Positions 47,101 through 62,432 of a stretch of 64,000 nucleotides of DNA are shown in pieces (position 1 is the first letter of the stretch; each line of letters starts with the position of its first letter). This DNA comes from an uncultured Candidatus Saccharibacteria bacterium (lineage in GTDB: Bacteria > Patescibacteriota > Minisyncoccia > Phycocordibacterales > UBA2100). Both the position numbers and the translations under genes were made by a program. The stretch covers positions 129,037 through 193,036 of the forward strand of contig CAYYEX010000001.1 of NCBI GenBank assembly GCA_964471165.1. Direction: 5' to 3'. The notes under the pieces are model-generated. The model was not told where the DNA came from, did no database searches, and worked only from the letters and a program-made list of their open reading frames with translations.

Positions 47101-47149
47101 AGTTCAAGGTGGCGTAGTACTTTGCGAACTGCTGGTTGGAGTTCTGCAT
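44135..47149 (-). CDS. UvrD/PcrA-family helicase fused to C-terminal PD-(D/E)XK nuclease with Cys cluster (AddA/RecB-like single-chain helicase-nuclease)
   Basis: start at ATG 47149 (MQNSNQQF); Walker A AGPGTGKTH, helicase motifs, C-terminal DYKTGK...CKKDDCRECA. Confidence 0.85.
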   Translation of the reverse strand: MQNSNQQFAKYYATLNSAQKKAVDTIEGPVMVVAGPGTGKTHILTLRIANILTKTDTPPDGVLALTFTEAGVDAMKQRLLKMIGPTAYKVGIYTFHGFCNDVIHSHPEYFPRIISSVALTDIESILYIREALTELPLEKLKPFGDPYFYVQSVKSAISTLKREHKTPHDVLTGTEMRLEKLANDPDSVHQKGAHKGKIKGPVVTEIDRLKKEHELGLVYEWYETKLAAMRKFDFDDMISEVVRALEVDESFRLAVQEKYLYILADEHQDANGSQNKLLELLTSFHDSPNLFIVGDEKQAIFRFQGASLDSFSYFQKHFPKATLIALVDSYRSGSVLLDAAHSLMRESIPEERHPKLKSKLEEPSHAVLEQRAFTSEEMEINWVVAAVAEHIGRGVAPGDIAIMYRTNADARSISRALSLRGILHALDSKSTIFHDHTITQLVTYLRLCMHIGSDEFLAHALHFPWSGVSSHDTYKILLFGQKHRIPYVDVIASRAHLKDARVYDTAAVTSFAESLLRLAKIAHEESARDFFDRVLHESGFLSYVLKRTDAVSVLNAVRGLAQTLETLSSTKTLYTGQDFVNDIGLYEEYGIEIEPDTQPKERSNAVHLVTAHRSKGLEYEYVFIVHARDAHWGNRQARNNLPLSTLATVQDTDVEDERRLFYVALTRAKQYVSVSYGVASATRSRESTITQFMLEVDPQLVQIIDTEAFEATVAPQDAFAIMPLRSDSMTDKEFLRDAFLEQGISATALNNYLECPWKYFYRSLVRVPEKQTQSSMYGNALHNALRLFRELSASTHTYQPLPVLLELLKTSIDRQGFAPALYEDAHKKGIRALTDWHERNERGYEFTAMCEKKFEVYLPLEANVIPQVLLRGLVDVIEFSGDGTTRVIDYKTGKHKSRNEIEGGTKNADGNYKRQLDFYCILLELSQMQRPDKLSLEFIEPNPAGKTVVHDFEYDEAAVAELKRTIARVAGEIYSLSFWDAGCKKDDCRECALRALTEVTPISS

Positions 47150-47166
47150 AAGAGCGCCAGTATATC

Positions 47167-47210
47167 CCCGAGTTACACCGGGGTCACGCCCGGCAAGGCA
47201 TTGCCGAGGC
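47167..47210 (+). repeat. dispersed REP/MITE-like element, short form (copy b)
   Basis: ccccgagttacaccggggtcacgcccggcaaggcattgccgaggc. Confidence 0.6.
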
Positions 47211-47247
47211 AAGACAAAGCCGCGCCTGCGGTTTGTTTTGTTGGCCG

Positions 47248-47772
47248 ATGCAAGATAGCATCAGCCGTGTGAAAGCGTTTTCCGGCAGAATATTCAAAAT
47301 CGGCATCAATCCATGCCTCGTTCCCCCAGAGTCCGTCATGGAGGCGCTGTTTCAAGACGCGGGTAAACGCTCGGGAGCTATCCCCGTGTGCGGCACCCTC
47401 GAGGGCGCGCCCTACGTGCAAACACTCGTAAAGTTCTCTGGTAAATGGCGCTTCTATATCAACGGTCCCATGCTGAAAGCTTCGGGACTCCAAAACGGAG
47501 ATATGGCGCACGTTGCAATCGAATACGATGCTCGCTCGCGCACGGTGCCTCTTGGTGTGCAGCTCAAGGAAGCCTTGGCAAAAGACAAAGCCGCAAAAAA
47601 AGCATACGACGCACTTGCCCCACACCGCCAAAAAGAAATCAACCGCTATTTAACCGGTCTCAAGACCGAAGCGACATTGCAGCGAAACATTGTGGTCGTA
47701 GTCGACTCGCTTGCGGGCCGCGGCACCACCGGGCTCCATGCGCTCCTGCGCGTTGCGCGCACCGACGACTAG
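47248..47772 (+). CDS. DUF1905/YdeI-like protein
   Basis: start at MQDSISRVKAF; N-terminal DUF1905-like beta region (IFKIGINPCLVPP) and C-terminal YdeI-like helical region. Confidence 0.55.
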   Translation: MQDSISRVKAFSGRIFKIGINPCLVPPESVMEALFQDAGKRSGAIPVCGTLEGAPYVQTLVKFSGKWRFYINGPMLKASGLQNGDMAHVAIEYDARSRTVPLGVQLKEALAKDKAAKKAYDALAPHRQKEINRYLTGLKTEATLQRNIVVVVDSLAGRGTTGLHALLRVARTDD

Positions 47773-47861
47773 TCTGTCCACAGACGCGGCCATTTTTCGC
47801 AACAATATATCGTTTAGGATAAGAAACGGTCCGACGGACCATCCATCAATAACAAAAAGGA

Positions 47862-48086
47862 GTGTATTCCGTAATGTTATCGGCAATAAAAAAGCCTACG
47901 CCTTCCCTCTCGTTTCTCTTCTACCAAACCCTCATCGACTTCTCGTCATCACGATGGCTCCCTGTGTCGTTGCGTATTCATTGGGGAGTGTCGTTCACGC
48001 TCTCGTTCTTTGCGGGGGTGGCACTCATTCTCTGGGTGCTTTTGGGACTGAAGAAGAAACTGCAGGAAAGAAAGGCGTCCGTCTGA
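47862..48086 (+). CDS. small membrane protein
   Basis: 74 aa; AAGGAG RBS 9 nt upstream; 2 TM; followed by terminator. Confidence 0.45.
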   Translation: MYSVMLSAIKKPTPSLSFLFYQTLIDFSSSRWLPVSLRIHWGVSFTLSFFAGVALILWVLLGLKKKLQERKASV

Positions 48087-48100
48087 GCTCTTGATTACTC

Positions 48101-48145
48101 GGTCGCCCCTCGCCATTCACTTGAGGGGCGACCGTTTTGCTTTTG
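48101..48145. terminator. bidirectional intrinsic terminator
   Basis: GGTCGCCCCTC-11 nt-GAGGGGCGACC plus T-run. Confidence 0.65.
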
Positions 48146-48149
48146 AACA

Positions 48150-48569
48150 TTATCGTCGTCCCATAAAGTAGCCGAGAAACGCTGTAATTGAGACAATTAT
48201 GATCACAGCCAGGTAGGATTTTAAATCAGTGAGCGCCTCCAACCAATCCGGAGTCATAAGAAATAGTGAATATATGAATCCGAGCAGTGCACCTGACGCG
48301 AGCCCCGAAGGATGTTCTGGTCGCGAGGCACGCGCAAAGTAAAAAGAAGTGAGTCCGTACCAGATACACAGTATTCCGAGGAATAACCACGTGGAAAAGA
48401 AAACTCCAACATCGACACTGATACTCATTCGGACGACATCAGAAGAAAGTGCATAGGAGATACCAGAGAAAAGCATGATGACTTTCAATAAAAGCCATGT
48501 GCTCGCAAAAAGCAGTGCTCCCGCGATGAGCCCGCGTTTGTATTCAAACCCTTTGAGGGTCTCAATCAT
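48150..48569 (-). CDS. hypothetical membrane protein (4 TM)
   Basis: 139-aa hydrophobic ORF. Confidence 0.4.
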   Translation of the reverse strand: MIETLKGFEYKRGLIAGALLFASTWLLLKVIMLFSGISYALSSDVVRMSISVDVGVFFSTWLFLGILCIWYGLTSFYFARASRPEHPSGLASGALLGFIYSLFLMTPDWLEALTDLKSYLAVIIIVSITAFLGYFMGRR

Positions 48570-48651
48570 ATGTAGTGATTATGACATGGGCCGATTTGCA
48601 TTTGAGGCTTGCAACTGTAATATCTCGTGAGTCGACTTCGGAGAACGCTCC

Positions 48652-49068
48652 ATGTATGAAGCCATGTATCTTGCCTTGTTGTTCGTCGCGGCCTGCGGCG
48701 CCGGCATGTTCGTACAAGCAGTGGTCGAAGAAGGCCATTTTCGATCTGCGATCGTGATCTACGCGATACTACTCATATTCCTTGCCTCTCAGATCTCGCC
48801 GCTCGTCGTCGAGATATTCGAATGGTTGGGGATTATGCAGTCATTCAGTTCGCCCGTGCGCAGGTTCTTCGGCAGTATCCTCGCAAGCGTACCGATCTTG
48901 CTGATCGTTGTAGGTGCAATGATCCTATCTGCCACGCCGACGGATCTCATCGACCCACGTTCACGTGCAGAGATTGCGCGAGCGCGACGGAAGGACTTAC
49001 TCGCGCAGAAGCCTCGCCGAGGCACCTATCGAAGACGGAATCACTTCGTCGAACATACCAATCGGTAG
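48652..49068 (+). CDS. hypothetical membrane protein (3-4 TM) with basic C-terminus
   Basis: 138-aa ORF, terminator downstream. Confidence 0.4.
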   Translation: MYEAMYLALLFVAACGAGMFVQAVVEEGHFRSAIVIYAILLIFLASQISPLVVEIFEWLGIMQSFSSPVRRFFGSILASVPILLIVVGAMILSATPTDLIDPRSRAEIARARRKDLLAQKPRRGTYRRRNHFVEHTNR

Positions 49069-49092
49069 CGCCATACAACATAGTGAACATCT

Positions 49093-49124
49093 CGGCTGGA
49101 CTTGCTCCAGCCGTTTGTTTTTTA
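49093..49124 (+). terminator. intrinsic terminator
   Basis: CGGCTGGA-CTTGC-TCCAGCCG plus T-run. Confidence 0.7.
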
Positions 49125-49241
49125 CATGGAGGGATGTGCTTACCTCGTAATTTGACAAGCGTTCCAAAGACACGCATTGTCTTGGCAGCATCCAAATCAG
49201 GCATGCTCTATCGATAACCCCGACCTGAAAGGAGCTCACCT

Positions 49242-49853
49242 ATGGGCGAGCAACCGAGCGACGAAGACCGCGTGCGTGCGTTGTTGCAGCACGAGATGAA
49301 GATGTCTGCTCCCAACGAGATGCAGCTTTCCGAAGCAATCGCCGACCTTATCATTGGCAACCCGGCAAGTGCGCACGACTTGTTGCTGTTGATTGAAAGC
49401 TACATCGATCGCAGTTTCACCGTCTATACATGGCGGTTCATGCCCGCGGTTCTGATTGGCTTACTCAGCGCTGCAATCTGGTGCGAAAAGAACTCGAAAA
49501 CGTATAACTGCGAGTTCGCCGCCGCACTGCCCGTGACACTCGGGACACTTCTGCGTCGCTACATCGATCGTGCTCCAAACCAGCCCGACAAGACGCACGA
49601 CCTATGCGGCGAGGGGGCCATCGGCAGGTTCAGCGACTTGCTCACGCTGTATACCTCGACCGGCAACCCGGATGAGAACACGCGGCGCATCGCGTTCATG
49701 CTCGGACGTGCAGCGAAATACGGGTCGCATGTTCCCGATTGCACTGCGCCGATTGTCAGTGTAGTGGCGCAGCGCGCACTCACCTTCCTGTGCGCCGGTG
49801 CGCAGATTCGCGCGGTTAACGCTCAGCTCAACGCAGAGCGCATCATTCCGTGA
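49242..49853 (+). CDS. hypothetical soluble protein (first gene of cassette-like array)
   Basis: 203 aa; TTGACA-like box and AAGGAG RBS upstream. Confidence 0.45.
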   Translation: MGEQPSDEDRVRALLQHEMKMSAPNEMQLSEAIADLIIGNPASAHDLLLLIESYIDRSFTVYTWRFMPAVLIGLLSAAIWCEKNSKTYNCEFAAALPVTLGTLLRRYIDRAPNQPDKTHDLCGEGAIGRFSDLLTLYTSTGNPDENTRRIAFMLGRAAKYGSHVPDCTAPIVSVVAQRALTFLCAGAQIRAVNAQLNAERIIP

Positions 49854-49864
49854 GCGAAACAGGC

Positions 49865-50014
49865 ATGCTGCTCGATACAGCCCAGCTATACTTCGCCGGA
49901 TTCGGCAACGCCGAGACAGAAGTGATCTTTAAATCCGCAGCCATTACGGCGATAATCTGCGCGATTCTCAGTGCGGCAGCCGTCCTCTACATTTTCAGGA
50001 AGAGGAAAAAGTAG
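49865..50014 (+). CDS. small TM peptide (49 aa)
   Basis: below the ORF-track cutoff; 11 nt after upstream stop; hydrophobic helix plus KRKK tail; followed by array terminator hairpin. Confidence 0.3.
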   Translation: MLLDTAQLYFAGFGNAETEVIFKSAAITAIICAILSAAAVLYIFRKRKK

Positions 50015-50029
50015 TGCGCGACAGGCTAA

Positions 50030-50055
50030 GGCCGGCATCCAGCGAGGTGCCGGCC
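50030..50055 (+). repeat. array terminator-hairpin module GGCCGGCATCCAGCGAGGTGCCGGCC (copy 1)
   Basis: 8-bp GC stem, 10-nt loop, directly after a stop codon; identical copies at 52205 and 55269. Confidence 0.7.
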
Positions 50056-50170
50056 TGATTTGATGCCTCGGCCCCAAGAATATCTGGGGTCGCAGCCCGG
50101 GAAAGCATTCCCGAGGCGCGTCAATGCAAAGCAGGGCTGAATCCCGGCGACAGCTCGGGAAATTCTCACT
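50056..50170 (-). repeat. dispersed REP/MITE-like element, long form, inverted orientation (copy c)
   Basis: tgatttgatgcctcgg...cagggctgaatcccggcg; reverse complement aligns with copy f at 63178. Confidence 0.55.
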
Positions 50171-50176
50171 CTCCCC

Positions 50177-50192
50177 CTATTCGCGCGAATTA
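50177..50192. promoter_or_regulatory. perfect 16-bp palindrome CTATTCGCGCGAATAG (ATTCGCGCGAAT box 1), overlapping stop codon of 50177..50983
   Basis: seen directly; identical 24-nt context ctattcgcgcgaattagagaatag recurs at 55909. Confidence 0.5.
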
Positions 50193-50983
50193 GAGAATAG
50201 CTTGCGCAGCGCAGGCTCATGCATGACCGCGTGACTGTGACCAAAAATTATAAAAATATTGTCGTGAGTGTGTAGCTCCCGAGCAATATCCTCTACCGCA
50301 AAACAATCACGTATATGCGAAGTAACGCGCCCGACTCTATTCAATGCGGTTTCAGTAATATCTGCGCGTGGGATTGGGTCGACGTATTCGCTCACCATTT
50401 CATCGCTCTCCACGTCAACAGGGTGTCCCACAATCGCTTCTCCAATACGCAGTGCATTCTCATATGAATAGTCGTATCCCCGCCACTCGGTGCTGCGTTT
50501 AAATCTATCGAGAAATGGCTGCGCGTATTCACGAAAGCTATCACCGTTCCCTCGGCGATAGTACTGCGGTAGTACGCGAAAAAGCTCGTATGCAAATATC
50601 TCGTCTGGGGTATACCCTTTTGCAATCAGTTGTTCGTGAACAAACTCGTCACTCGGCTCCGGTGAATTGCACTCGATACCTTTTTCGAGTGCAAGCCGCA
50701 CGGCGAATAATGGTTCGCCTCCTTGCTCTATTGTTTCGCTCTCCGACATTTCGCTCAGCCACACGTGGAACGACTCACGCCGCTCGCGCAACTTTTCTAC
50801 TCCCTCGACGAGCACGAGGTCCGGAGCTGCCTTTTCAAGCGTGCTGCGTATCTGTGCAAACAGAGTATTGTTTGGGTCGCTTACGTGGTCAGAGCCAAAA
50901 TACGTGATTTTCTTTCCGTTGCGTGTGAGTTCAAAAATGTATGGCGATTCATGTCGGATACCGCTGTATTCCTGTGCGTTCAT
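50177..50983 (-). CDS. hypothetical protein (weak TraB/GumN-like N-terminal pattern)
   Basis: start at ATG 50983 (MNAQEYSG); ITYFGSDHV resembles the GxxH box of TraB/GumN family, not reliable. Confidence 0.4.
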   Translation of the reverse strand: MNAQEYSGIRHESPYIFELTRNGKKITYFGSDHVSDPNNTLFAQIRSTLEKAAPDLVLVEGVEKLRERRESFHVWLSEMSESETIEQGGEPLFAVRLALEKGIECNSPEPSDEFVHEQLIAKGYTPDEIFAYELFRVLPQYYRRGNGDSFREYAQPFLDRFKRSTEWRGYDYSYENALRIGEAIVGHPVDVESDEMVSEYVDPIPRADITETALNRVGRVTSHIRDCFAVEDIARELHTHDNIFIIFGHSHAVMHEPALRKLFSNSRE

Positions 50984-51090
50984 AACGTTGTCACCGAGCT
51001 GGGGCGCTTTATGCTCGGGCTGACGCAATACTCTTTTGTCTGGCGAGTCTATTCCCACAACAGGATTATAGCCCCCAGATTTGTTTGTGC

Positions 51091-51123
51091 TGGCATATCC
51101 AGATTTTCAGGCGTAGCATATGG
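51091..51123 (+). promoter_or_regulatory. array promoter-like box (P-box copy 1)
   Basis: tggcatatccagattttcaggcgtagcat; same box upstream of four other array genes. Confidence 0.5.
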
Positions 51124-51150
51124 TTTGGAATTCTCAGTGGAGCGAAAGAA

Positions 51151-51354
51151 ATGGCACAGCCACGCACATTCAACGTCTTCTCACGCAACGTGTGGATTAT
51201 CGCCGGCGGCGGCGTCGGAGGCGGAGTAATTGGTTGGGCGCTTTCCTCATACTACGGAGTGCCAAACATCGACCACGGGCCGTTCACGGCTCTGGGCATG
51301 ATCATTGCGAGTGTCCTTACGGCACTTTTGGTGTTCCGACGCAAGCGCTCCTGA
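51151..51354 (+). CDS. small 2-TM membrane protein (67 aa)
   Basis: GGAG RBS; Gly-rich helix AGGGVGGGVIGWAL; terminator downstream. Confidence 0.45.
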   Translation: MAQPRTFNVFSRNVWIIAGGGVGGGVIGWALSSYYGVPNIDHGPFTALGMIIASVLTALLVFRRKRS

Positions 51355-51357
51355 CGA

Positions 51358-51377
51358 ACGAGCAAGCTCGTTTTCCT
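51358..51377 (+). terminator. intrinsic terminator
   Basis: AACGAGC-AA-GCTCGTT plus TTTT. Confidence 0.55.
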
Positions 51378-51448
51378 ACGGCCGGAATCGCGAGATTCCG
51401 GCACCTTCGTTTTATACATCTGGGTCTTGTTTCGCTCCCGCGTGTATT

Positions 51449-51478
51449 TCAACTCCAGCAATTAATCCAATTGGATTA
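51449..51478 (+). repeat. partial copy of ~100-nt array repeat (R100) containing ATCCAATTGGAT
   Basis: tcaactccagcaattaatccaattggatta vs tcaactccagtaatccatccaattggatga in full copies. Confidence 0.5.
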
Positions 51479-51692
51479 TTTATAGGAGTGACTCCTTGGA
51501 TGCGGATTTCGATTCTCTCGCCAACTCGTACGTATCTCTAAAAGGTTAAACCTTGGAGCACTTTATTGACCCACGCGTATCCGTGACGCAGTATTCACAA
51601 GTTCGGGCTGGATGCTTGAACGAGTGTATCTACCTAGCTACGCGGGATGCGTAGCGGATACTGTGCGGCGGGATGCCGCAAGGAGGTACGTA

Positions 51693-52181
51693 ATGAAAGC
51701 CAAAGCCAAGGCCCAAGGATTTCGGGCTGCATTCCCTTGGATTGATCAACTCTTTCCCGGGGAGAACTACAACTTCGCGACCGCGTCGGTTGATGCCGAC
51801 ATTCTCGATCGTGTGCCCAGCTTCAACTATCCTGAGCTCACGAAGAACCGCATCACCCTGGTCAGTCGGCACGGAACGCTGATGACCGACGTTGCGGGCG
51901 TGAGTGGAATTGTCTCTGCACTCACGATCAACTTCGGTGGCTTCTGCCGGCAGAAGGAGGAGTTGGTCAGCGAAGCACTCGAACGGCTCGGCGATGCGGT
52001 GTCGGACGTTGGATTCATCGTGGTAATCACCCCGCGGGGTCGCCACAAACAGACGAACTTCACCATCTACCACACGCGCGAGAACACCTCTATCGCAGAG
52101 GTTTGGCGGCGCTTGGCGGCAAAAGAAGAGGCGGACGTCCGCAAACAAATACAAGCGGAGATGGAGCCACTTGCGGCCTAA
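51693..52181 (+). CDS. hypothetical protein
   Basis: start at ATG with AAGGAGG RBS (MKAKAKAQGF); followed by array terminator hairpin. Confidence 0.5.
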   Translation: MKAKAKAQGFRAAFPWIDQLFPGENYNFATASVDADILDRVPSFNYPELTKNRITLVSRHGTLMTDVAGVSGIVSALTINFGGFCRQKEELVSEALERLGDAVSDVGFIVVITPRGRHKQTNFTIYHTRENTSIAEVWRRLAAKEEADVRKQIQAEMEPLAA

Positions 52182-52204
52182 CACGGCCCCACATGTTCAT
52201 TCGA

Positions 52205-52230
52205 GGCCGGCATCCAGCGAGGTGCCGGCC
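52205..52230 (+). repeat. array terminator-hairpin module (copy 2)
   Basis: GGCCGGCATCCAGCGAGGTGCCGGCC then GATTCGTTTTG. Confidence 0.7.
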
Positions 52231-52330
52231 GATTCGTTTTGGACGTATCACTCTCTGATATATATCAACTCCAGTAATCCATCCAATTGGATGAACCACA
52301 GCAGTAGGCTATCTCGAGGATAGTTAATTT
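52231..52330 (+). repeat. ~100-nt array repeat R100 (copy A) with 12-bp palindrome ATCCAATTGGAT
   Basis: about 90% identical over ~100 nt to 55295..55392. Confidence 0.65.
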
Positions 52331-52400
52331 TTGATATCAGAGAAGAGGGCGACGATGCGATCTTTGAGAATGCCGCGAACTATTTCGGGCTTGAATTTAT
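52322..52400 (-). pseudogene. 3'-terminal fragment (about 20 codons plus stop) of a second CDA-fold deaminase paralog
   Basis: 52328-52400 about 90% identical to 53291-53370 (3' end of the full deaminase gene); encodes ...FKPEIVRGILKDRIVALFSDIKN* vs ...FNPEIVRGILKDRIVALFADIKK*; similarity ends abruptly upstream. Confidence 0.55.
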
Positions 52401-52462
52401 ATTCAAAGGCCCGACCTTAGAATATATGTAGAGTTGCAAATTAGGACACGTTTCTGTAGTGT

Positions 52463-53233
52463 ATGCAACAGCTGAATGGAAATGTGGAAGGACTCACCGT
52501 GTCCCAGCAACAATACGACTCTTTCGCAAGCAACTATGCAAAAGCCGCCGCCGGCAACGGCGTGAACGATTACTGCAACTACCCGAGCCTGTATGCCGCA
52601 GCTGGAGATTTCGTGGGCAAGAAAGTGCTCGATCTCGCCACAGGGAACGGCAAAGTTGCTCGCGCAGTCGTTGAACTGGGCGCTGCAGAAGTGATCGCGG
52701 TTGACGAGTCGCAGAAGATGATCGATATCGCACGGGCGCAAACTCCGTCGAGCTCGCCGATACGGTACTACACGGAAACCGTGGGCAAACTTGGACACAT
52801 GGACAAGTTCGACGTCGTCATCGCCGGCTGGCTCCTGCACTACGCGAAAAGCGAAGTGTCGCTGCGCGCAATGTGCCACGACATCATGCTCAATTTGAAA
52901 CCGGGCGGCGTTTTCGCGGCAATTAATCCGAATCCGATGAACCCGTTCGGAGGCACTCGTACGCTCGGCACCATGGTGAGCCCACGGCGAGTCCCCTGCG
53001 ACAACGGCGGCGAGATGATCATTACCCTCTACGGCGAGACCACGCAAACGTTCTCGGCGTATCACTGGGAGATGGAAACCTACAAGAAAGCGTTCCGTCT
53101 CAGCGGTCTCGATCTGGAGGTAATTCAGCCGCAGCCAACGGCGCTCGGACTCCAGCGGCTCGGTCCGCTGTTCTGGGACGAAGCGCGCCGGCATCGCATC
53201 ACCTCGATCTTTCGTGCCCGCCGCAGATCGTAA
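52463..53233 (+). CDS. class I SAM-dependent methyltransferase
   Basis: 256 aa; motif I VLDLATGNG, acidic motif II AVDES, motif III-like DVVIAGW. Confidence 0.8.
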   Translation: MQQLNGNVEGLTVSQQQYDSFASNYAKAAAGNGVNDYCNYPSLYAAAGDFVGKKVLDLATGNGKVARAVVELGAAEVIAVDESQKMIDIARAQTPSSSPIRYYTETVGKLGHMDKFDVVIAGWLLHYAKSEVSLRAMCHDIMLNLKPGGVFAAINPNPMNPFGGTRTLGTMVSPRRVPCDNGGEMIITLYGETTQTFSAYHWEMETYKKAFRLSGLDLEVIQPQPTALGLQRLGPLFWDEARRHRITSIFRARRRS

Positions 53234-53258
53234 TGCTGCGCCGAAGGTAATAGCAAGA

Positions 53259-53292
53259 AGGCCGGAGTTCCTCCATGGAACCCGGCTTTTAC
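53259..53292. terminator. bidirectional terminator between convergent methyltransferase and deaminase
   Basis: GCCGGAGTTCC-TCCA-TGGAACCCGGC plus TTTT. Confidence 0.6.
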
Positions 53293-53738
53293 TTTTTGAT
53301 ATCAGCAAAGAGAGCGACGATGCGGTCTTTGAGAATGCCGCGAACAATCTCGGGATTGAATCCGGAATCCTCTGCGAGGTGTTCGATTCGAAATTGTCTT
53401 TCGCGGAGCAAGTCCGGTAAATCACTGCGTGATGCACCGATTACCACTCGCGGAATCTTTGCTTGGAAAATTGCTGCCGCGCACATGAGGCACGGTTCGT
53501 TGGAGCAGTAGATTACACAGTCACTCAGATTATTTGTGCCGAGCACTTTGCAGGCATCGTTTACCGAATGGAGCTCCGCATGAGCAAGCACCGTCTTTTC
53601 TTTTGACTCGCGGCAACGATTTTGCGCAATCACCTCATCCCCGCGAACTATCACAGCCCCAAACGGCCACTCGCCGTCAGCCTTGGCCTCCACGGCCTGC
53701 GCGATGGCCATTTCCATGTATTTTTCGTCCATATCCAT
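53289..53738 (-). CDS. CMP/dCMP-type (CDA-fold) zinc deaminase, TadA/guanine-deaminase-like
   Basis: 149 aa; zinc motifs HAELH and SNEPCLMCAAAI. Confidence 0.8.
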   Translation of the reverse strand: MDMDEKYMEMAIAQAVEAKADGEWPFGAVIVRGDEVIAQNRCRESKEKTVLAHAELHSVNDACKVLGTNNLSDCVIYCSNEPCLMCAAAIFQAKIPRVVIGASRSDLPDLLRERQFRIEHLAEDSGFNPEIVRGILKDRIVALFADIKK

Positions 53739-53763
53739 ATGAGTATTCTAACTCACATCCCCC

Positions 53764-53792
53764 TAGCGAATCTCAATTTTCGGGCGTAGGAT
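53764..53792 (+). promoter_or_regulatory. array promoter-like box (P-box copy 2)
   Basis: tagcgaatctcaattttcgggcgtaggat. Confidence 0.5.
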
Positions 53793-53846
53793 TTGTGCGG
53801 GACCGTGCCCGCCCCGGACACACAACAACTCAGATGGAGCTTGCCC

Positions 53847-54053
53847 ATGAGAACCGGTTTCGCAGTGCTTCTCACTGCTGCGCTCTCGATTGCCCTCGCA
53901 CTCGCTCTTCAGCAGACGATTCTGTTTGCCGAGGCAGAGCTCGGAAAACAATGGGCAATGCCCGCGATGCTGGTTGTCGGCATCCCGGCGAGCTACCCGA
54001 TTCACCTGTTCCTCGAATGGGCGTCGCGATTCTCAGCTCCGCGGCTTGCATGA
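53847..54053 (+). CDS. small 2-TM membrane protein (68 aa)
   Basis: internal ATG with GGAG RBS (MRTGFAVLLTAAL). Confidence 0.45.
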   Translation: MRTGFAVLLTAALSIALALALQQTILFAEAELGKQWAMPAMLVVGIPASYPIHLFLEWASRFSAPRLA

Positions 54054-54084
54054 GCTAGGCCAGAAATGGCATCAGATTTTTCCC

Positions 54085-54110
54085 GGCCGGCATCCAGCGA
54101 GATGCCGGCC
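54085..54110 (+). repeat. array terminator-hairpin module (copy 3, GGCCGGCATCCAGCGAGATGCCGGCC)
   Basis: one loop substitution relative to copies 1, 2 and 4. Confidence 0.7.
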
Positions 54111-54203
54111 TTATTGCATACCCTAGCCTTTCGAAACAATACGGAGTAACCTTTTTGCAGGGAATGTTTGGAAGTCACACGTCCACAGCGGGAGCGAACC
54201 AAC

Positions 54204-54548
54204 ATGGAAGCAGCCTTATCACGCGAAGCAATGATCGGTGAGATCGCCGGATTCTATGGAACCAAATTGGGGCCAGCTGTAGCTCAACGGCTCGCAGATT
54301 TGCCCGACGATCGGGTTTCCAATGCGCACGCACTGATGCAGCGACGTCGCAAGGCGCATGACATGATTGCCGCGTGCATGGCGGCCTACGCCCTGTTCGC
54401 CGACGTGCTCGAAGAGCACTACATGGGACAGAGCATTGCGATTAGCGCGATGACTGGCGAATTCCGCATAGGCTACACCGACGCAGAACTCGCCGCGTGG
54501 AAACTGCCCGAGGGCGACGGCGTGTTCATGATCAAAATCGGACAATAG
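54204..54548 (+). CDS. hypothetical protein (114 aa)
   Basis: internal ATG with GGGAG RBS (MEAALSREAMIGE); degenerate P-box-like sequence upstream (54121..54150). Confidence 0.45.
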   Translation: MEAALSREAMIGEIAGFYGTKLGPAVAQRLADLPDDRVSNAHALMQRRRKAHDMIAACMAAYALFADVLEEHYMGQSIAISAMTGEFRIGYTDAELAAWKLPEGDGVFMIKIGQ

Positions 54549-54573
54549 CCAATTTCGGCGGGAGTACTCACCA

Positions 54574-54750
54574 ATGCCCCACGATGTTATTCGACCCGAC
54601 TGGTCGTATTGGCAATGGCCACCGACCAAAGCGGATTGGGACAAGCTGCGCAGACAAGAGGCCGAGTACCAGGCTCGGCGCGCCGTCGACCCGCTCAAGG
54701 GCGGTCCAATCGAGCAGTTCCTTGCATGGCTCCTCTGTGTGCCATAGCTG
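54574..54750 (+). CDS. small Trp-rich protein (58 aa), possibly coupled to upstream gene
   Basis: below ORF-track cutoff; GGGAG RBS; 25 nt after upstream stop; followed by variant terminator hairpin. Confidence 0.3.
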
Positions 54751-54761
54751 ACCGACATTCA

Positions 54762-54787
54762 GGCCGGGTCCCCCGTTGGACCCGGCC
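54762..54787 (+). repeat. variant array terminator hairpin GGCCGGGTCCCCCGTTGGACCCGGCC
   Basis: 10-bp GC stem; followed by same gatttgatgcctcggc flank as copy 1. Confidence 0.6.
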
Positions 54788-54826
54788 GATTTGATGCCTC
54801 GGCTATGCCTAGCCGGGCTGAATCCC
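54788..54826 (-). repeat. dispersed REP/MITE-like element, short form, inverted orientation (copy d)
   Basis: gatttgatgcctcggctatgcctagccgggctgaatccc; reverse complement of copy e core. Confidence 0.55.
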
Positions 54827-54851
54827 TTTAGTGACGTTTACCCACTATTCG

Positions 54852-54869
54852 CCCATTCGCGCGAATGGG
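54852..54869. promoter_or_regulatory. perfect 18-bp palindrome CCCATTCGCGCGAATGGG (ATTCGCGCGAAT box 2)
   Basis: seen directly; identical copy at 55984. Confidence 0.5.
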
Positions 54870-54877
54870 TCCAATAG

Positions 54878-54906
54878 TGGCGAATCTCTATTTTCAGGCG
54901 TAGGAT
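54878..54906 (+). promoter_or_regulatory. array promoter-like box (P-box copy 3)
   Basis: tggcgaatctctattttcaggcgtaggat. Confidence 0.5.
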
Positions 54907-54930
54907 GGCCGCGGCTTAGGGAGGAACACG

Positions 54931-55242
54931 ATGAATATCAAAGCTGTCTTACTCGCATCGCAGAAGACATTGATCGCAGTTGAACGCCACTACCCCGGTA
55001 TCGAACCGCGCCAGTGGCCGAAGGGACGCCCTGCAAACCTCGAGTGTGACCGTGACCTGTTGGTCGCCGACGCGGTTTGGACGCTGCACAGGATTCCCGC
55101 CATGATCGATGCGAAAGATTCTGACAAGGCTATGCATTCGCTCGGCACCTGTCAGGCAGTTTTGTGGCTCATGAGTGTCATCGAACAATCGGAGCTTGAG
55201 TCGATCAATCGCACGGCCGTCGCGGAATCCGCGGCAGCGTAA
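54931..55242 (+). CDS. hypothetical soluble protein (103 aa)
   Basis: GGGAGG RBS; followed by array terminator hairpin. Confidence 0.45.
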   Translation: MNIKAVLLASQKTLIAVERHYPGIEPRQWPKGRPANLECDRDLLVADAVWTLHRIPAMIDAKDSDKAMHSLGTCQAVLWLMSVIEQSELESINRTAVAESAAA

Positions 55243-55268
55243 CGGAGACCTCTATGTTCACTGATCGA

Positions 55269-55294
55269 GGCCGGCATCCAGCGAGGTGCCGGCC
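55269..55294 (+). repeat. array terminator-hairpin module (copy 4)
   Basis: GGCCGGCATCCAGCGAGGTGCCGGCC then GATTCGTTTTG. Confidence 0.7.
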
Positions 55295-55392
55295 GATTCG
55301 TTTTGTATTTTGTGTCTATCATTCTCTGATATATCAACTCCAGTAATCCATCCAATTGGATGAGTTACAGCAGTGAACTATCTGGAGAATAT
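55295..55392 (+). repeat. ~100-nt array repeat R100 (copy B) with ATCCAATTGGAT
   Basis: aligns with 52231..52330. Confidence 0.65.
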
Positions 55393-55419
55393 TTTTAATT
55401 CCTCGGCTTTTTTGTTCAC

Positions 55420-55448
55420 TAGCGAATACTTGTTTTCGAGCGTAGGAT
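55420..55448 (+). promoter_or_regulatory. array promoter-like box (P-box copy 4)
   Basis: tagcgaatacttgttttcgagcgtaggat. Confidence 0.5.
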
Positions 55449-55487
55449 TTGTGCGGGAATGAACGGCAACAACGGAAGGATTCCGCC

Positions 55488-55871
55488 ATGAACGTCGAGA
55501 CGATGATTATGTTTGTGTGCTTCGCTGCGATAGCGCTCGGTATCACGGTGGGCGGATATCGCACGGCAACGGTTACCCGCGCGCGAATCGATGCCATCAA
55601 AGCCAACGCGGTAATCACTGCGCTGATGGCGGCGCTCATGTGGTGGTACTGGAGCCCCGAAATCAACGAGCTCGCGTTCGGCTTCCGCAACAACTTCCTC
55701 GGCTACACGAGCGCCTTCGTGCTGTGCATGCTGACCATTCCGTTGCCCGTTTTCTTTATCGCGGCAGCAATTGCTCGTTTCAGCGCGTGGGCCGAGTCTG
55801 ACCAAGCCAAGGCAAATCGAAAAGCTGGGCAGCGGCGGTTCTTCGCGGAGCCCTCCCCAATTCCGCGTTAA
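55488..55871 (+). CDS. polytopic small membrane protein (127 aa, 3-4 TM)
   Basis: internal ATG with GGAAGGA RBS (MNVETMIMFV). Confidence 0.5.
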   Translation: MNVETMIMFVCFAAIALGITVGGYRTATVTRARIDAIKANAVITALMAALMWWYWSPEINELAFGFRNNFLGYTSAFVLCMLTIPLPVFFIAAAIARFSAWAESDQAKANRKAGQRRFFAEPSPIPR

Positions 55872-55908
55872 CCTCTGAGCGCGTCGCGCCATCACTCAGA
55901 CCCATTCG

Positions 55909-55924
55909 CCTATTCGCGCGAATT
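55909..55924. promoter_or_regulatory. perfect 16-bp palindrome CTATTCGCGCGAATAG (ATTCGCGCGAAT box 3)
   Basis: identical to 50177..50192 including aattagagaatag tail. Confidence 0.5.
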
Positions 55925-55937
55925 AGAGAATAGCCCC

Positions 55938-55963
55938 GGCCGGCATCCAGCGCGATGCCGGCC
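55938..55963 (+). repeat. array terminator-hairpin module (copy 5, GGCCGGCATCCAGCGCGATGCCGGCC)
   Basis: two loop substitutions. Confidence 0.65.
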
Positions 55964-55983
55964 TGATTTAATACTCACTATTC

Positions 55984-56001
55984 ACCCATTCGCGCGAATG
56001 G
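55984..56001. promoter_or_regulatory. perfect 18-bp palindrome CCCATTCGCGCGAATGGG (ATTCGCGCGAAT box 4)
   Basis: identical to 54852..54869 with shared actattc(g/a) left flank. Confidence 0.5.
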
Positions 56002-56346
56002 GTCCAGAGAGACTATTCGCCTATTCGCGTGCGACCAATGTTTCTTAGCGGTACTCCGCTTTAGAAACATGAAGTACTCTTGTGGTGAATTAGAGAATAG
56101 TTGAATACACACAAGGTGTGCGGTCGCACAGGTTGTGTGTATGTGTCACTTCAAGGTTCGACCTTGAAGTAGGTCTGGTGCGGGCCCCACACCGCCGCGC
56201 AAATCGTTCTTTCCGCGCAGGCCACCTGCAACCGTCCGGGCAATCGCCCGGACTTCTGCTTTATGTCCCCATTTTCTTTCTCTAACGAATGTCTTCCGCA
56301 CAAGGTCCGACCTTGTCATCGCTTGGACTGCGTCCTGATCTAATAC

Positions 56347-56397
56347 CTCCCGAGATACTCCGGGATTCAGCCCGGCTAGGCATAGCCGAGGCATCAC
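56347..56397 (+). repeat. dispersed REP/MITE-like element, short form (copy e)
   Basis: cctcccgagatactccgggattcagcccggctaggcatagccgaggcatca. Confidence 0.6.
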
Positions 56398-56426
56398 TAG
56401 CGAATCTACATTTTCGGGCGTAGCAT
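56398..56426 (+). promoter_or_regulatory. array promoter-like box (P-box copy 5)
   Basis: tagcgaatctacattttcgggcgtagcat, 8 nt before the ATG. Confidence 0.5.
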
Positions 56427-56434
56427 CAGGCTGT

Positions 56435-57421
56435 ATGTACGTGATAGTTGACACAAACATAATTCACAAGGATTACTATTTGTCATCAAAAAAATTCGTT
56501 GCACTATTTGAATACCTAAGAAAAACTCCCCACAAATTGATTATTCCTCAGATCGTTGAGAATGAACTAACGGAACATTTTAGACGTGATGTGGTTAGTT
56601 TACGTGAACTGCAAGGTTCGTTCATTCACGACACAGACAAGCTATTGAAGACAGCGATATCACGCAAAGATATCGATGAAGACGCCGAGTTAAAGAAATA
56701 TATAAAGTTTCTCGAAAAGTTCTACGAAAACAACCCAGTAGAACGAGCACTGCACAATTCGGATTTCTTTCTTGAAATTGTTGAGCGTGCAGTGCGTCGG
56801 CGTGCGCCGTTCGTCAAAGGCGAAAAACCTGACTATGGATTTAAAGATGCAGTACTTTGGCACCATGTTAGAGAAATTGCGCATAAAGGCCACGAGGCGT
56901 TGGCCTTTATTAGTGCCAACACATCTCAATTTGCAAATGCTTCTAAAGACGACTTAAATCCTGAACTCAGAGCAGAGTTGTCCCGCTCCAACACTACATT
57001 TAAATACTTCACAACACTTGAATCTTTTCTGGAGAAGTATGGAGCCCCATTACAAGGTATTACCCACGAGGCCGTTAAAAAAGCACTCGACTTGAAGGCC
57101 CTGGAAATGAAAGAAACAGGCGCATTCAAGGAGGAATTCCTCAAAGAGATATTTGAGTACGCGCTATACAAATCGGTGCAACAAATAGAGTTTGAGAGAC
57201 TCGAATTAAGCAATTTCTTCGTTTCAGCAATGGACAAGAAGTCATACTTCCTTGAAGCAGTGGGTAGCGCATTCGCATGGGTTCTTATATGGGATCCCAC
57301 AACCGAGCCGTACCCTGATGAACTCCGTACAACATTTAAAGCCACCTTGAGGTTTGATCGGAAAACATCCGAACTCGTTGCGGACTCAATATCGATCGAC
57401 AAGTACGATATCCCATTTTAG
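56435..57421 (+). CDS. PIN-like (DUF4935-type) domain protein, AT-rich relative to surroundings
   Basis: 328 aa; N-terminal MYVIVDTNII...(D-x-N PIN start) with extended helical C-terminal region; codon usage visibly A/T-rich. Confidence 0.55.
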   Translation: MYVIVDTNIIHKDYYLSSKKFVALFEYLRKTPHKLIIPQIVENELTEHFRRDVVSLRELQGSFIHDTDKLLKTAISRKDIDEDAELKKYIKFLEKFYENNPVERALHNSDFFLEIVERAVRRRAPFVKGEKPDYGFKDAVLWHHVREIAHKGHEALAFISANTSQFANASKDDLNPELRAELSRSNTTFKYFTTLESFLEKYGAPLQGITHEAVKKALDLKALEMKETGAFKEEFLKEIFEYALYKSVQQIEFERLELSNFFVSAMDKKSYFLEAVGSAFAWVLIWDPTTEPYPDELRTTFKATLRFDRKTSELVADSISIDKYDIPF

Positions 57422-57600
57422 ACAAGTGTTCTTGCCTACATCAAAAAAGTATTCTGAGTCTTTGCAAAACATGAGACTCTTCCGTCTTTTTTTGATAAAA
57501 TCAAGCAATATGACGATTGTTTCAAGGACATCGTTGACATCGATCTCGTCCGCAATGCTCGCCGTGCAAATTTTTGTCGCTTCTGCATTGACCGCGTGTT

Positions 57601-57642
57601 CATTAGCCTGTACGCTGGGACTTCCCAGCGTACAGGCTAATG
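57601..57642. repeat. perfect 19-20-bp inverted repeat CATTAGCCTGTACGCTGGGA...TCCCAGCGTACAGGCTAATG
   Basis: seen directly; 4-nt loop; immediately upstream of an intrinsic terminator. Confidence 0.7.
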
Positions 57643-57651
57643 AAGTGAGTA

Positions 57652-57686
57652 AATAACAAAACCGTGCTTCTTGCGCGGTTTTTTGG
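57652..57686 (+). terminator. intrinsic terminator after PIN-like gene
   Basis: AACCGTGC-TTCTT-GCGCGGTT plus TTTTTT. Confidence 0.65.
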
Positions 57687-57811
57687 ACTGAGATATTTGG
57701 ATGCAGTTCTAGGCGCGGGCGAGGCGGGTTCCGAGCCGTACTGAATGTACGGTGAGGAGCACGGCGACGCACGCAACAACGAAATGCGCCAAATAGTTCA
57801 GTCCATCATAT

Positions 57812-57846
57812 TAAGAAAAAGTCCCCTTCCGGGGACCTTTTCTTAA
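57812..57846 (-). terminator. rpoD terminator (bidirectional)
   Basis: AAAAAGTCCCC-TTCC-GGGGACTTTTT. Confidence 0.75.
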
Positions 57847-59159
57847 TATGATCGGAGCTGTTTTGCTCGTTCGTGGAATCGGATTCGTTCGAGAGCTTTG
57901 GCCTCAATCTGGCGAATACGTTCGCGGGTTACGCCGAACTCTCGGCCCACCTCTTCGAGTGTGTAGCAGATGCCGTCGTCTGTGAGCCCGTTTCGCATTT
58001 CGAGGATTTTGCGCTCCTTTGGTGAGAGCTCGTCGAGAATGCCCATCATCTGCTCGGAGAGGATTCGGCGCGATGCGTCCTGGTCTGGAGCGGCGATTGT
58101 GTCGTCGGCGATGAACGAGCCCAATGTTGAGCGCTCGTCGTCATCTTCACCCACTGGAGATTCGAGTGATACGGTGTCCTGGTTGATTTTCTGAATGGTG
58201 TAAATTTTGTCGACTTCAATGCCCATTTCTGCGGCAATTTCTTCTGGCAGTGGGTCGCGGCCCAAGTGTTGCGAGAGTTCGCGCACCTTCTGCTTGTACT
58301 TGGCGATGGTTTCCACCATGTGCACCGGAATACGAATCGTTCGAGACTGGTCGGCGAGTGCGCGGGTGATAGCCTGGCGAATCCACCAAGTAGCGTATGT
58401 AGAAAACTTAAAGCCCTTGGAGTAGTCGAACTTGTCTACGGCCTTAAAGAGGCCGAGGTTCCCTTCCTGAATCAGGTCGAGGAGGGTCAAATCTGGAGAG
58501 CGGTTTACGTATTTCTTGGCGATAGATACCACCAAGCGGAGGTTGGAGCGTGCCAAAATCGAGCGAGCTTCGTCGTCGCCCACGAGAATGCGCTTTGCGA
58601 GGTCTTTCTCCTGTTCACCGTTGAGCAGTGGGTACTGACCGATTTCTCGGAGGTACATCTGCACAGAGTCGTAGTTGGAATCAGAGCGGCGGTTCTGGAG
58701 CTTCTTGGAAGCGAGCACAGAATCTGCCGAAGTGTCTTCGAGCATGCCGCCGCCTTCGAGCACATCGATGCCGGCCGTCGAAAATCGCTCATACATTTCT
58801 TCGAGCAACGTCATGTTGTCTTCGATTGTTGGGAACTCGCGCAAAATCTCGTCAAACGTTACGTAGCCGCGCTCTTTCCCGAGCCCAATGAGCGCCTGCA
58901 CCTTGTCGGCAGACTTTCCTTTCATTTCAAACTTGGCGCCGGCGAGCACCTGCTTTTTTACCTTGCCGCCCTTAATTTCAACCTTCTGCATTGGCTGTTG
59001 CTTGGCAGGAGTGCGGCCCGCGCGCGAAGTGGCGCTGGTGCGGCGTGGTTTTGCAGGCGAGCGTTTGACCGCCGTCTTTTTGGTCTTCGTTGCGCCAGCG
59101 GCACGATTTTGCTTGCCTGCCTTCTTCACTTTCTTTGCAACTTTTTTTGCTTTTGCCAT
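57843..59159 (-). CDS. rpoD: RNA polymerase sigma-70 factor RpoD with Lys/Ala-rich N-terminal tail
   Basis: regions 1.2-4 present ([44 protein letters not shown]). Confidence 0.95.
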
Positions 59160-61138: not shown

Positions 61139-61375
61139 CTACTTCACCACGTGCATGTACGGTACAGCTGTGGGTATGCGTCCGGACAACACGGTTACCT
61201 CGGAGATCGTAAAGAAATCGTGGATCTGGATTTCGGAAAAATCCTTACCAGGGAATTCCTTGCTCACGACCGCAATCACTTCGGCAAACGTTGGCCTCGC
61301 TTGAGCACCCCAGACAACAAGTTTCTGGCCGGTGCCCACGTAGTTCTCAATAACCGTAGGTGACTTCACTGCCAT
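61139..61375 (-). CDS. hypothetical small protein
   Basis: 78-aa ORF with terminator. Confidence 0.35.
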   Translation of the reverse strand: MAVKSPTVIENYVGTGQKLVVWGAQARPTFAEVIAVVSKEFPGKDFSEIQIHDFFTISEVTVLSGRIPTAVPYMHVVK

Positions 61376-61394
61376 TGCGGATTCTCCCTTTGCC

Positions 61395-61586
61395 TCACAC
61401 TTTCAGAACGGAGATGAGCCCCATCAGTGCGAAGAAAACGCCCCACCCAAGCTTCGCACTTTCGAACGCCGAACCGATGAGGGAGCTACCGAAAATAATG
61501 AACACCGTCCCTACGAGCAATACGCCGGCAGGGAGACAGCCCTTCTTTGAAAGTCCGTGATCATCCGAATCCTCGTGAAGTGACAT
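61395..61586 (-). CDS. small 2-TM membrane protein
   Basis: 63 aa. Confidence 0.3.
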   Translation of the reverse strand: MSLHEDSDDHGLSKKGCLPAGVLLVGTVFIIFGSSLIGSAFESAKLGWGVFFALMGLISVLKV

Positions 61587-61599
61587 CGCCCATACTCCT

Positions 61600-61902: not shown

Positions 61903-62048
61903 GTTCGCCTCCCAGAACTCGCAAGAGCGCCAACCGCTCTACCCGCAACAACCATATGCTCCCGCCTTCTCCATGTCAAAAGCGTGAAAAATCGAAATGC
62001 TGGGCAGCCTACCCTGCCCAGCATCGATATTTTTCCGCGTCAGCGGAA

Positions 62049-62342: not shown

Positions 62343-62432
62343 GGCATCCTCCCTGTGGATGACTCCTGGCCCTTTCGTCTGCCATAGTAATCAAACCACG
62401 CCACCAAAAAACGCAAAGGGATATGGGTGCGC

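Follow-up and report, generated by a model that had tools for sequence, protein, structure and literature searches.

Why do five unrelated genes that stand close together on one contig all end in front of the same hairpin? The sequence in question, a GC-rich 26-mer that we call hp26 (GGCCGGCATCCAGCGAGGTGCCGGCC), recurs within a 64-kb stretch of contig CAYYEX010000001.1 (the window, by which we mean that whole stretch), and an earlier interpretation drawn from the letters alone (the sequence-only reading) had taken it for a common mobile or recombined 3' module, analogous in position to the attC sites of integrons. We found that hp26 looks like the stem-loop of a Rho-independent terminator of single-gene transcription units, and we infer that transcription ends there. 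The explanation that we favor, and that we consider probable without being sure of it, is that this terminator belongs to the conserved linkers of a hypervariable island between rpoD and a helicase gene, in which genes are turned over by homologous recombination.

A pattern search for hp26 over the 64 kb of the window, with up to three mismatches allowed, gave five matches, all on the + strand: three exact ones (50030, 52205, and 55269), one with a single mismatch (54085), and one with two (55938). No match was obtained in 100 dinucleotide-preserving shuffles, and there was no further copy elsewhere in the window or in 15 kb of additional flank. This survey covers ~79 kb of a 308-kb contig, including ~70 kb outside the gene array that holds the hairpins. 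The copies, with the genes that precede them on the same strand, are listed here.

50030-50055, + strand: hp26 copy 1, exact; 15 nt past the stop codon of a 49-amino-acid gene (49865-50014); flank B on its 3' side; -26.1 kcal/mol, z -3.5
52205-52230, + strand: hp26 copy 2, exact; 23 nt past the stop codon of a 162-amino-acid gene (51693-52181); flank A on its 3' side
54085-54110, + strand: hp26 copy 3, with G18A and a perfect 10-bp stem; 31 nt past the stop codon of a 68-amino-acid gene (53847-54053); unique 3' flank
55269-55294, + strand: hp26 copy 4, exact; 26 nt past the stop codon of a 103-amino-acid ORFan gene (54931-55242); flank A on its 3' side
55938-55963, + strand: hp26 copy 5, with A16C and G18A; 66 nt past the stop codon of a 127-amino-acid gene (55488-55871)

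The distances from stop codon to hairpin, which are based on the gene calls of the source contig, thus range from 15 to 66 nt (14 nt for a stem variant at 54762, see below), in agreement with the 11-70 nt given by the sequence-only reading. The upstream genes are unrelated, as it had also said, BLASTP having detected no mutual similarity among their five products; the 103-amino-acid protein upstream of copy 4 had no homologue but itself in a database of 5.8 billion proteins. The reading had further described at most two substitutions per copy, all in the loop. The number is right, and the location holds for the 10-nt loop that was drawn there, but the predicted RNA fold of hp26 has a 10-bp GC-rich stem (GGCCGGCAUC/GRUGCCGGCC) and a 6-nt loop (-21 to -26 kcal/mol, z -2.5 to -5), in which position 18 is paired, so that G18A (copies 3 and 5) replaces a U.G pair with a U-A pair of the stem.

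Two kinds of 3' flank recur. Flank A (GATTCGTTTTG) follows copies 2 and 4, and flank B ((T)GATTTGATGCCTCGGC) follows copy 1 and the 54762 variant, while copy 5 is followed by TGATTTAATAC only and copy 3 by an unrelated sequence, TTATTGCATAC. The conserved flank that had been ascribed to every copy therefore exists for copies 1, 2, and 4 and for the variant, is reduced in copy 5, and is missing from copy 3. Around copies 2 and 4 a 41-nt block is 100% identical. The tetranucleotides just 5' of copies 1 to 5 are CTAA, TCGA, TCCC, TCGA, and CCCC, respectively, and in copy 5 a palindrome of the D3 type (see below) is inserted between the stop codon and hp26.

Two Logan unitigs from independent runs (L023 and L024) are 100% identical to the window through copy 2 and end exactly at 52230, and a third (L056, with ends at 55334 and 56391) is 100% identical straight through copy 5. 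An assembly artefact can thus be discounted as the source of the copies. The unitigs stop exactly where a k=31 graph is bound to break because of the 41-nt repeat.

All five copies are found in an island of ~10 kb that is bounded by a gene for a UvrD/PD-(D/E)XK helicase (44135-47212, - strand) and by rpoD (57843-59159, - strand), which is followed by dnaG. Family matches in the island were limited to an OmdA-domain protein, an S-adenosylmethionine-dependent methyltransferase, a deaminase of the cytidine/tRNA type, which resembles TadA with a score below the cutoff, and a PIN_12 protein. PADLOC and NCBIfam scans of the island proteins revealed no defence or immunity system. Besides the five copies of hp26, the island contains three hairpins of related design.

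47233-57421, + strand: variable island; of its ~17 small genes, 14 are on the + strand, and most match no family
51381-51402, + strand: family hairpin GCCGGAATCgcgaGATTCCGGC, stem GCCGGAATC; 26 nt past the stop codon of a 67-amino-acid gene (51151-51354)
53261-53286, no strand assigned: family hairpin GCCGGAGTTCC...GGAACCCGGC, between the convergent methyltransferase (+ strand) and deaminase (- strand) genes
54762-54787, + strand: stem variant GGCCGGGTCCcccgttGGACCCGGCC, stem GGCCGGGTCC; 14 nt past the stop codon of a 57-amino-acid gene (54574-54747); flank B on its 3' side

The last of these had been pointed out by the sequence-only reading and is indeed present; the other two were absent from its list. 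The hairpin at 51381-51402 is followed by TTCGTTTTA and then by a diverged D4 palindrome, while the one at 53261-53286 has an A-rich 5' flank and a T-rich 3' flank, like a bidirectional terminator.

To what family do these hairpins belong? We compared the DNA next to rpoD in seven relatives with 91-97% RpoD identity (L012, L015, L019, L020, L021, L053, and L048). Where a source name is given for the closest relatives by RpoD, it is Candidatus Kaiserbacteria, i.e. a member of the candidate phyla radiation (CPR, Patescibacteria), and we take the window, too, to be Kaiserbacteria DNA. In each relative the same place is taken by an array of 7-19 small genes, mostly unannotated, that run opposite to rpoD; wherever the contig extends far enough, the array ends at the same helicase gene. 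BLASTP between the window array and those of L012, L015, and L019 gave two weak protein matches only, and in BLASTN the sole gene conserved at the DNA level between islands was the helicase-proximal OmdA gene. Because the BLASTN matches between the window island and the related ones are almost exclusively intergenic, we conclude that the linkers have been kept while the genes between them differ.

Many of these linkers contain a hairpin with the stem GCCGG-R-W-TCC, a loop of 3-9 nt, and a T-rich tail. In the island DNA of six genomes (~52 kb) we counted 35 hairpins of the GCCGG...CCGGC type with a stem of at least 7 bp, versus 3 in ~105 kb outside, i.e. a ~20-fold difference in density. In the window, seven are inside the island and one is outside, not at a gene end; there was none in the additional 15 kb of the same contig. 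Stem positions 6-9 covary, with CG/AT/GC, AT/TA/GC, and TA/CG pairs in different copies. What the family keeps is, to judge from these changes, the pairing and the GCCGG base of the stem. The dominant stem type depends on the genome (CATC in the window, GTCC in L012, AATC in L015, L019, and L053), and stem identity is 0.64 within genomes versus 0.44 between them (permutation p<1e-4). The hairpin at 54762-54787 is nearly identical to one in L012 (12909-12932), with one difference in the loop.

Loops are another matter. In L015 one and the same stem, GGCCGGAATCC, carries the loops gcagg, gcgga, agg, and gcgag. Since the family does not require a particular loop and the copies of hp26 nevertheless have identical or nearly identical ones, these copies must share a recent ancestry, and the idea that their identity reflects a shared 3' module rather than independently evolved terminators is borne out by the loop being identical too. 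On this comparison, hp26 is most probably a very recently homogenized or amplified local version of the island terminator family. It would be, so to speak, the 'house' variant in this genome of a lineage-wide, island-specific terminator.

The evidence that the hairpins are terminators comes from their structure, position, and flanks. Like intrinsic terminators, they combine a stable GC-rich stem-loop with a T-rich tract behind it, both read on the coding strand, and are situated tens of nt (14-66 nt) past a stop codon; their stems show compensatory changes. A generic terminator scan flagged copies 2 and 4 of hp26. The tails of hp26 contain 5-6 T in their first ten bases and fit the TTTCGTTTTG/TTTGCTTTTG tail that follows many hairpins of the lineage. 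For 34 family hairpins read on the gene strand, the 10 nt 3' of the stem contain on average 6.0 T (2.3 expected), while the 10 nt 5' of it contain only 3.5 A; this T excess on the 3' side with few A on the 5' side indicates that the family is oriented with the genes. The terminators of unrelated genes normally share no sequence, whereas here the GCCGG stem base is common to the different genomes and the five copies are near-identical, including the loop. The housekeeping terminators of the window have unrelated stems, typically with an A-tract, GCCC-type bases, and a T-tract in that order.

The hairpin is one part of a composite linker. The other parts, and a gene remnant that lies among them, are given below.

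52231-52325, + strand: linker module A, comprising the GATTCGTTTTG tail, TCTCTGATATAT, and the D4 palindrome ACTCCAGTAATCCATCCAATTGGAT, defined by repeats and alignment
50056-50145, + strand: linker module B, (T)GATTTGATGCCTCGGC ... GGGCTGAATCCC; short form at 54788-54826, inverted copy at 56362-56396
53763-53802, + strand: D2 promoter-like box, CTAGCGAATCT..ATTTTCGGGCGTAGGAT; also at 51090-51129, 54877-54916, 55419-55458, and 56397-56436
54839-54880, no strand assigned: D3 palindrome CCACTATTCGCCCATTCGCGCGAATGGGTCCAATAGTGG; related copies at 50163-50200, 55896-55933, and 55972-56006
56012-56100, no strand assigned: ~90-nt element resembling a miniature inverted-repeat transposable element (MITE), with inverted ends CTATTCGCCTATTCGCG ... 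GAATTAGAGAATAG, an internal hairpin, and the same ends as D3
52324-52398, - strand: deaminase gene remnant, made of the last 24 codons (KFKPEIVRGILKDRIVALFSDIKN) and the stop; its DNA is 89% identical to that at about 53289-53363

Module A recurs at 55295-55394 with ~86-100% identity; a diverged form is found at 51403-51509, and L012 has the module at 12835-12913. The linkers of copies 2 and 4 share the 41 identical bases and then ~125 nt at ~88%, which include a long D4 palindrome centered on CCAATTGG. A window linker (hairpin, TTCGTTTTG tail, D4, D2) can be aligned with a linker of L012, from which it differs in the stem of the hairpin and in the flanking genes. The modules of B-type linkers are rearranged relative to one another, and the MAFFT alignment of these linkers was thus uninformative.

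The 3' end of D2 is ~25-55 nt upstream of five island start codons on the + strand, and its exact 16-mer TTTTCGGGCGTAGGAT is also found in L012, L015 (twice), and L019, ahead of unrelated genes. Most island genes, in all genomes, have a GCGTAGGAT -10-like box in front of them, as a rule 15-30 nt past the terminator tail. Intergenic boxes of the GCGTAGGAT type are confined within the window to the island, and the housekeeping and tRNA genes of the window have the -10 boxes TAGAAT, TATACT, or TAAGAT. This island-specific promoter-like box may point to a separate regulon or to a different sigma-factor specificity. A linker would accordingly read as a terminator (its 5' part), palindromic modules, and a GCGTAGGAT promoter box, and would insulate each small gene from the next.

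How could such linkers come to stand between different genes? Hairpins and flanks occur in more than one pairing: hp26 is joined to flank A, flank B, or a unique flank; a GGGTCC hairpin to flank B in the window and to flank A in L012; and a GAATC hairpin of the window to an A-like flank. The sequence junctions thus fall at the edges of the hairpins. This, the variety of flank contexts, and the restriction to the array support the idea of a common mobile or recombined module put forward by the sequence-only reading, and the position of the junctions also favors the recombination breakpoint that it had envisaged at the hairpin. It had overlooked, however, that what is repeated is in many cases an entire linker. 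The five copies of hp26 would have arisen from a recent common ancestor in this genome and would then have been placed by recombination or insertion beside different genes and flanks.

The window contains several traces of rearrangement, namely the deaminase remnant, a perfect inverted repeat of 35 nt, and the ~90-nt element, whose orientation relative to the genes is not that of its copies in L012, L019, and L053. The inverted repeat (54792-54826 and 56362-56396, 100% complementary, 1.5 kb apart) brackets two gene units and could mediate inversion of the segment between its arms. The methyltransferase unit is bracketed by direct repeats of 73 nt (89% identical), which are probably the footprint of an insertion, or of a duplication followed by a deletion. 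The repeats available in the linkers comprise direct ones of 41 nt at 100% and of ~125 nt at ~88%, and the inverted one of 35 nt at 100%. The minimal length for RecA-dependent exchange is ~25 bp, and identical linker segments are long enough for it. Gene units would be gained, lost, and shuffled by RecA-type homologous recombination between linkers: existing units would be deleted or inverted in this way, and new ones inserted if a circular or incoming fragment took part. Natural transformation is a plausible source of incoming DNA, and no dedicated integrase would be required.

Several observations fit this explanation less well. The five hp26 copies have T-tails of only moderate T content, weaker than those of textbook terminators, and that of copy 3 is poor (TTATTGCATA). 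On the gene strand, G.U mismatches do not significantly outnumber A.C ones (4 G.T versus 2 A.C). Sequence identity stops sharply at 26 nt in copies 1, 3, and 5, which plain homologous recombination does not explain; so sharp a boundary would fit better with a site-specific or hairpin-targeted process. We found no presence or absence of a gene unit between close strains, the contigs available being 100% identical, ended at repeats, or N-gapped at a hairpin, and we infer linker turnover from the comparison between species only. Finally, other islands with the same hairpin are possible beyond the ~79 kb that we read of the contig.

A more novel idea, which we think has only a slim chance of being correct, is that the rpoD-adjacent site is an integron-like but integrase-less capture platform of Kaiserbacteria, perhaps also of other CPR bacteria, where single-gene units, each delimited by a GCGTAGGAT promoter box and a GCCGG-type hairpin, are inserted, excised, and homogenized via the hairpin or the linker. 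The hairpin could then be a site folded in single-stranded DNA during transformation or replication, or the target of an unrecognized enzyme.

An integron-like system, in which hp26 is an attC-like site, as a folded single strand or as a duplex, for a recombinase encoded elsewhere and each gene with its hairpin a mobile cassette, seems unlikely to us, in spite of several parallels. As in sedentary chromosomal integrons (e.g. the Vibrio cholerae repeats), a structured site is found 3' of each open reading frame (ORF) in an array of small, mostly co-oriented, unrelated ORFan genes, mostly of unknown function, and the sites are homogeneous within a genome and different between genomes. Junctions with different flanks occur exactly at the 3' edge of the hairpin, and the array is variable at its rpoD-proximal end and conserved at its helicase-proximal end (OmdA and LapA-domain genes). 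However, attC core sites are missing: no intergenic linker contains an RYYYAAC/GTTRRRY pair, the sole pair spaced by 30-130 nt being inside a gene. Instead of a bulged, imperfect palindrome of 55-140 nt with L''/L' boxes, an unpaired central spacer, and extrahelical bases, hp26 is a 26-nt stem-loop with a perfect 10-bp stem (one U.G). Its family has loops of 3-9 nt and compensatory changes in its arms, which suits RNA pairing rather than recognition by a protein, and, unlike attC sites, its members have T-rich tails and are accompanied by promoter-like boxes that belong to the island genes themselves. Neither intI nor attI was found, and no tyrosine or serine recombinase was present among the Pfam matches of the ORFs and called genes of the window, of the genes called in its 15 kb of flanks, and of those called in the seven related islands. 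What stands of the attC analogy is therefore that the sites lie 3' of the cassette ORFs and are homogeneous genome by genome; membership of the attC class does not stand, given the lack of core sites, the perfect 26-nt stem-loop, and the absence of an integrase from the DNA scanned.

A related case is that of the rAID-1 orphan-immunity gene arrays of Bacteroidales (Ross et al., bioRxiv 10.1101/471110), which have intergenic repeats 'reminiscent of integrons', a conserved XerD-family recombinase gene at their end, and a skewed GC content. Repetitive intergenic sequences between diverse small genes are also seen here, but neither an XerD-family recombinase at the array end nor a skew in GC content. 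No homology to immunity proteins was detected among the window genes. The genes at the array end differ from genome to genome (a PIN_12 gene in the window, genes for unrelated proteins of 241-344 amino acids in the relatives), so that no gene is conserved there, a point that also speaks against an integron. Our searches of the literature for integrons or attC sites in Patescibacteria, variable islands in Kaiserbacteria, and terminator repeats in CPR bacteria returned nothing relevant.

We consider it improbable, too, that hp26 is a selfish miniature palindrome, comparable to the repetitive extragenic palindromic (REP) sequences, which is moved in trans, e.g. by a REP-associated tyrosine transposase (RAYT) or IS200-type enzyme, and terminates transcription incidentally. 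The REP sequences and bacterial interspersed mosaic elements of Enterobacteria and Pseudomonas are likewise short, GC-rich, species-specific palindromes, which can stabilize or terminate transcripts, and those of E. coli occur at the same position, after stop codons. The 26-nt unit is sharply bounded, it is found in four contexts with its loop conserved, and the linkers contain other small palindromic, MITE-like elements that are common to several genomes and occur in both orientations (e.g. 56012-56100). Yet REP sequences are dispersed in hundreds of copies, have a conserved GTAG-like 5' end, and are linked to RAYTs, whereas all copies of hp26 are within 6 kb (50.0-56.0 kb), none being present in the ~70 kb outside, and all five point the same way with respect to the genes. 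A conserved 5' tetranucleotide of the GTAG type is missing, no target-site duplication flanks hp26, and no Y1_Tnp match was obtained with the scanned proteins. A search of the GTDB species representatives and JGI metagenome contigs for hp26 with two free loop positions also gave no related copy. It returned 10 single matches, on contigs of ~68-72% GC with unrelated flanks; seven of the 10 represent the same stretch of unrelated high-GC contigs, and two of these seven are titled Actinomycetota/Actinomycetes.

Could hp26 be kept by selection on its loop? In that case a protein would bind stem and loop, in RNA or DNA, and co-regulate the island, e.g. by antitermination or by an effect on mRNA stability. 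Three copies have the same loop and the other two a nearly identical one, and the island promoter box, together with operator-like ATTCGC palindromes, suggests a regulon. On the other side, loops vary freely on identical stems in L015, three other hairpins of the same island have different stems and loops, and no candidate binding protein is conserved in the islands, which makes this explanation very unlikely in our opinion. A search of Rfam at gathering and permissive thresholds gave three tRNAs and noise only, i.e. no known RNA family in the island.

It is extremely unlikely that hp26 is an ordinary terminator consensus of the whole species, or a coincidence of base composition, and as such unconnected with the array. 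GC-rich stems containing CCGG are simple sequences, and TTTCGCTTTT-type tails are also found outside the island behind hairpins that do not belong to the family (e.g. upstream of dnaG in L012, L015, and L019), but the shuffles contain no copy, the family is enriched ~20-fold in the islands of six genomes, single arms scarcely occur outside hairpins, and no copy or family hairpin stands behind a housekeeping gene in the ~70 kb outside the array, whereas the sequence-only reading had named dozens of such copies as the mark of a consensus, so that this idea is largely refuted for the region surveyed.

Two further candidates were rejected. A DNA uptake sequence is contradicted by the arm GCCGGCATC/GATGCCGGC being present only four times outside hairpins in the 64 kb, and the arms of the relatives are nearly always in hairpins. 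A dif, pdif, or lox core site, with two inverted binding arms around a central spacer of constant length (6-8 bp), was considered because hp26 alone has a 10+6+10 layout, but the loops of the family measure 3-9 nt and its arms covary.

Returning to a terminator in the linkers of a recombining island, we may ask how this arrangement compares with what is known. In Neisseria, identical inverted-repeat stems made of uptake sequences terminate unrelated genes, and intergenic repeats of the Correia and BOX types are modular and have promoter and terminator activity. These elements are genome-wide and their arms are abundant singly, whereas the arms studied here occur almost only in island hairpins. 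Flexible genomic islands, or 'minimal mobile elements', similarly occupy a fixed site between core genes and differ in content among close relatives, but they are flanked by conserved core genes, whereas here conserved linkers are additionally found between all the genes inside. The locus is therefore made of known kinds, a flexible genomic island and an intrinsic terminator, and no new class is needed. The hairpin itself is an ordinary type of element; what is unusual is the architecture with conserved linkers and the restriction to one island.

CPR genomes are tiny, and yet at this locus ~10 kb with ~17 genes are nearly fully replaced between relatives with 92-97% RpoD identity, while the noncoding linkers persist. 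If the linkers enable the swapping of units, they would provide recombinase-free plasticity of gene content in organisms that are believed to rely on contact with a host and on the uptake of DNA, and would amount to natural, standardized 'promoter-gene-terminator' parts. If the site were in truth a capture platform, a genome-reduced symbiont would gain a stock of ORFan genes that can be renewed. In short-k assemblies and scaffolds, breaks fall exactly at the hairpins or linkers (the ends of L023, L024, and L056; N-gaps in L049 and L050), and because of these breaks such islands are likely to be fragmented or lost in CPR metagenome bins.

We made a few additional observations on the linkers and their surroundings. 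The MITE-like element at 56012-56100 is also present in L012 (18015-18091), L019 (11239-11328), and L053 (8269-8358), with 78-91% identity over the four genomes, and in the window it is oriented, relative to the island genes, the opposite way from its copies in the relatives. In the shorter D3 palindromes the two ends of this element seem to be joined directly. ATTCGC/GCGAAT hexamers, direct and inverted, recur ~10 nt apart at 55896-56030, an array that looks like binding sites for a DNA-binding protein. When the D2 and D3 16-mers were searched in viral contigs, 11 and 12 single matches, respectively, were obtained with no co-occurring motifs, which corresponds to chance level. As to the cargo of the related islands, L021 has two adjacent genes for sigma factors of the extracytoplasmic function (ECF) type (10043-11132) and L020 a response-regulator receiver gene.

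A second, smaller variable stretch of small unannotated genes is situated between rpoC and dnaG (61139-63116). It differs between genomes as well (cf. L012 5611-8019 and L015 5314-8036), and most of its hairpins are of other types, a GCCGG-type one being found at L012 6707. In rpoD, the window differs at three positions within 19 nt (58773, 58776, and 58791) from ENA contig k141_766591 (L022, L004), all else that was compared being identical. The 421-nt gap after the PIN_12 gene contains a perfect 21-bp hairpin (TTCATTAGCCTGTACGCTGGGacttCCCAGCGTACAGGCTAATGAA, 57599-57644). Between the PIN_12 gene and the rpoD terminator there is also a noncoding element of ~125 nt (57684-57808), which is absent from L015, L020, and L021 and 88-90% identical in L012 (11362-11509) and L019 (10202-10364). 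It has no Rfam match and forms on the + strand a long rod-like predicted hairpin (-64 kcal/mol, z -9), which makes it a candidate small RNA.

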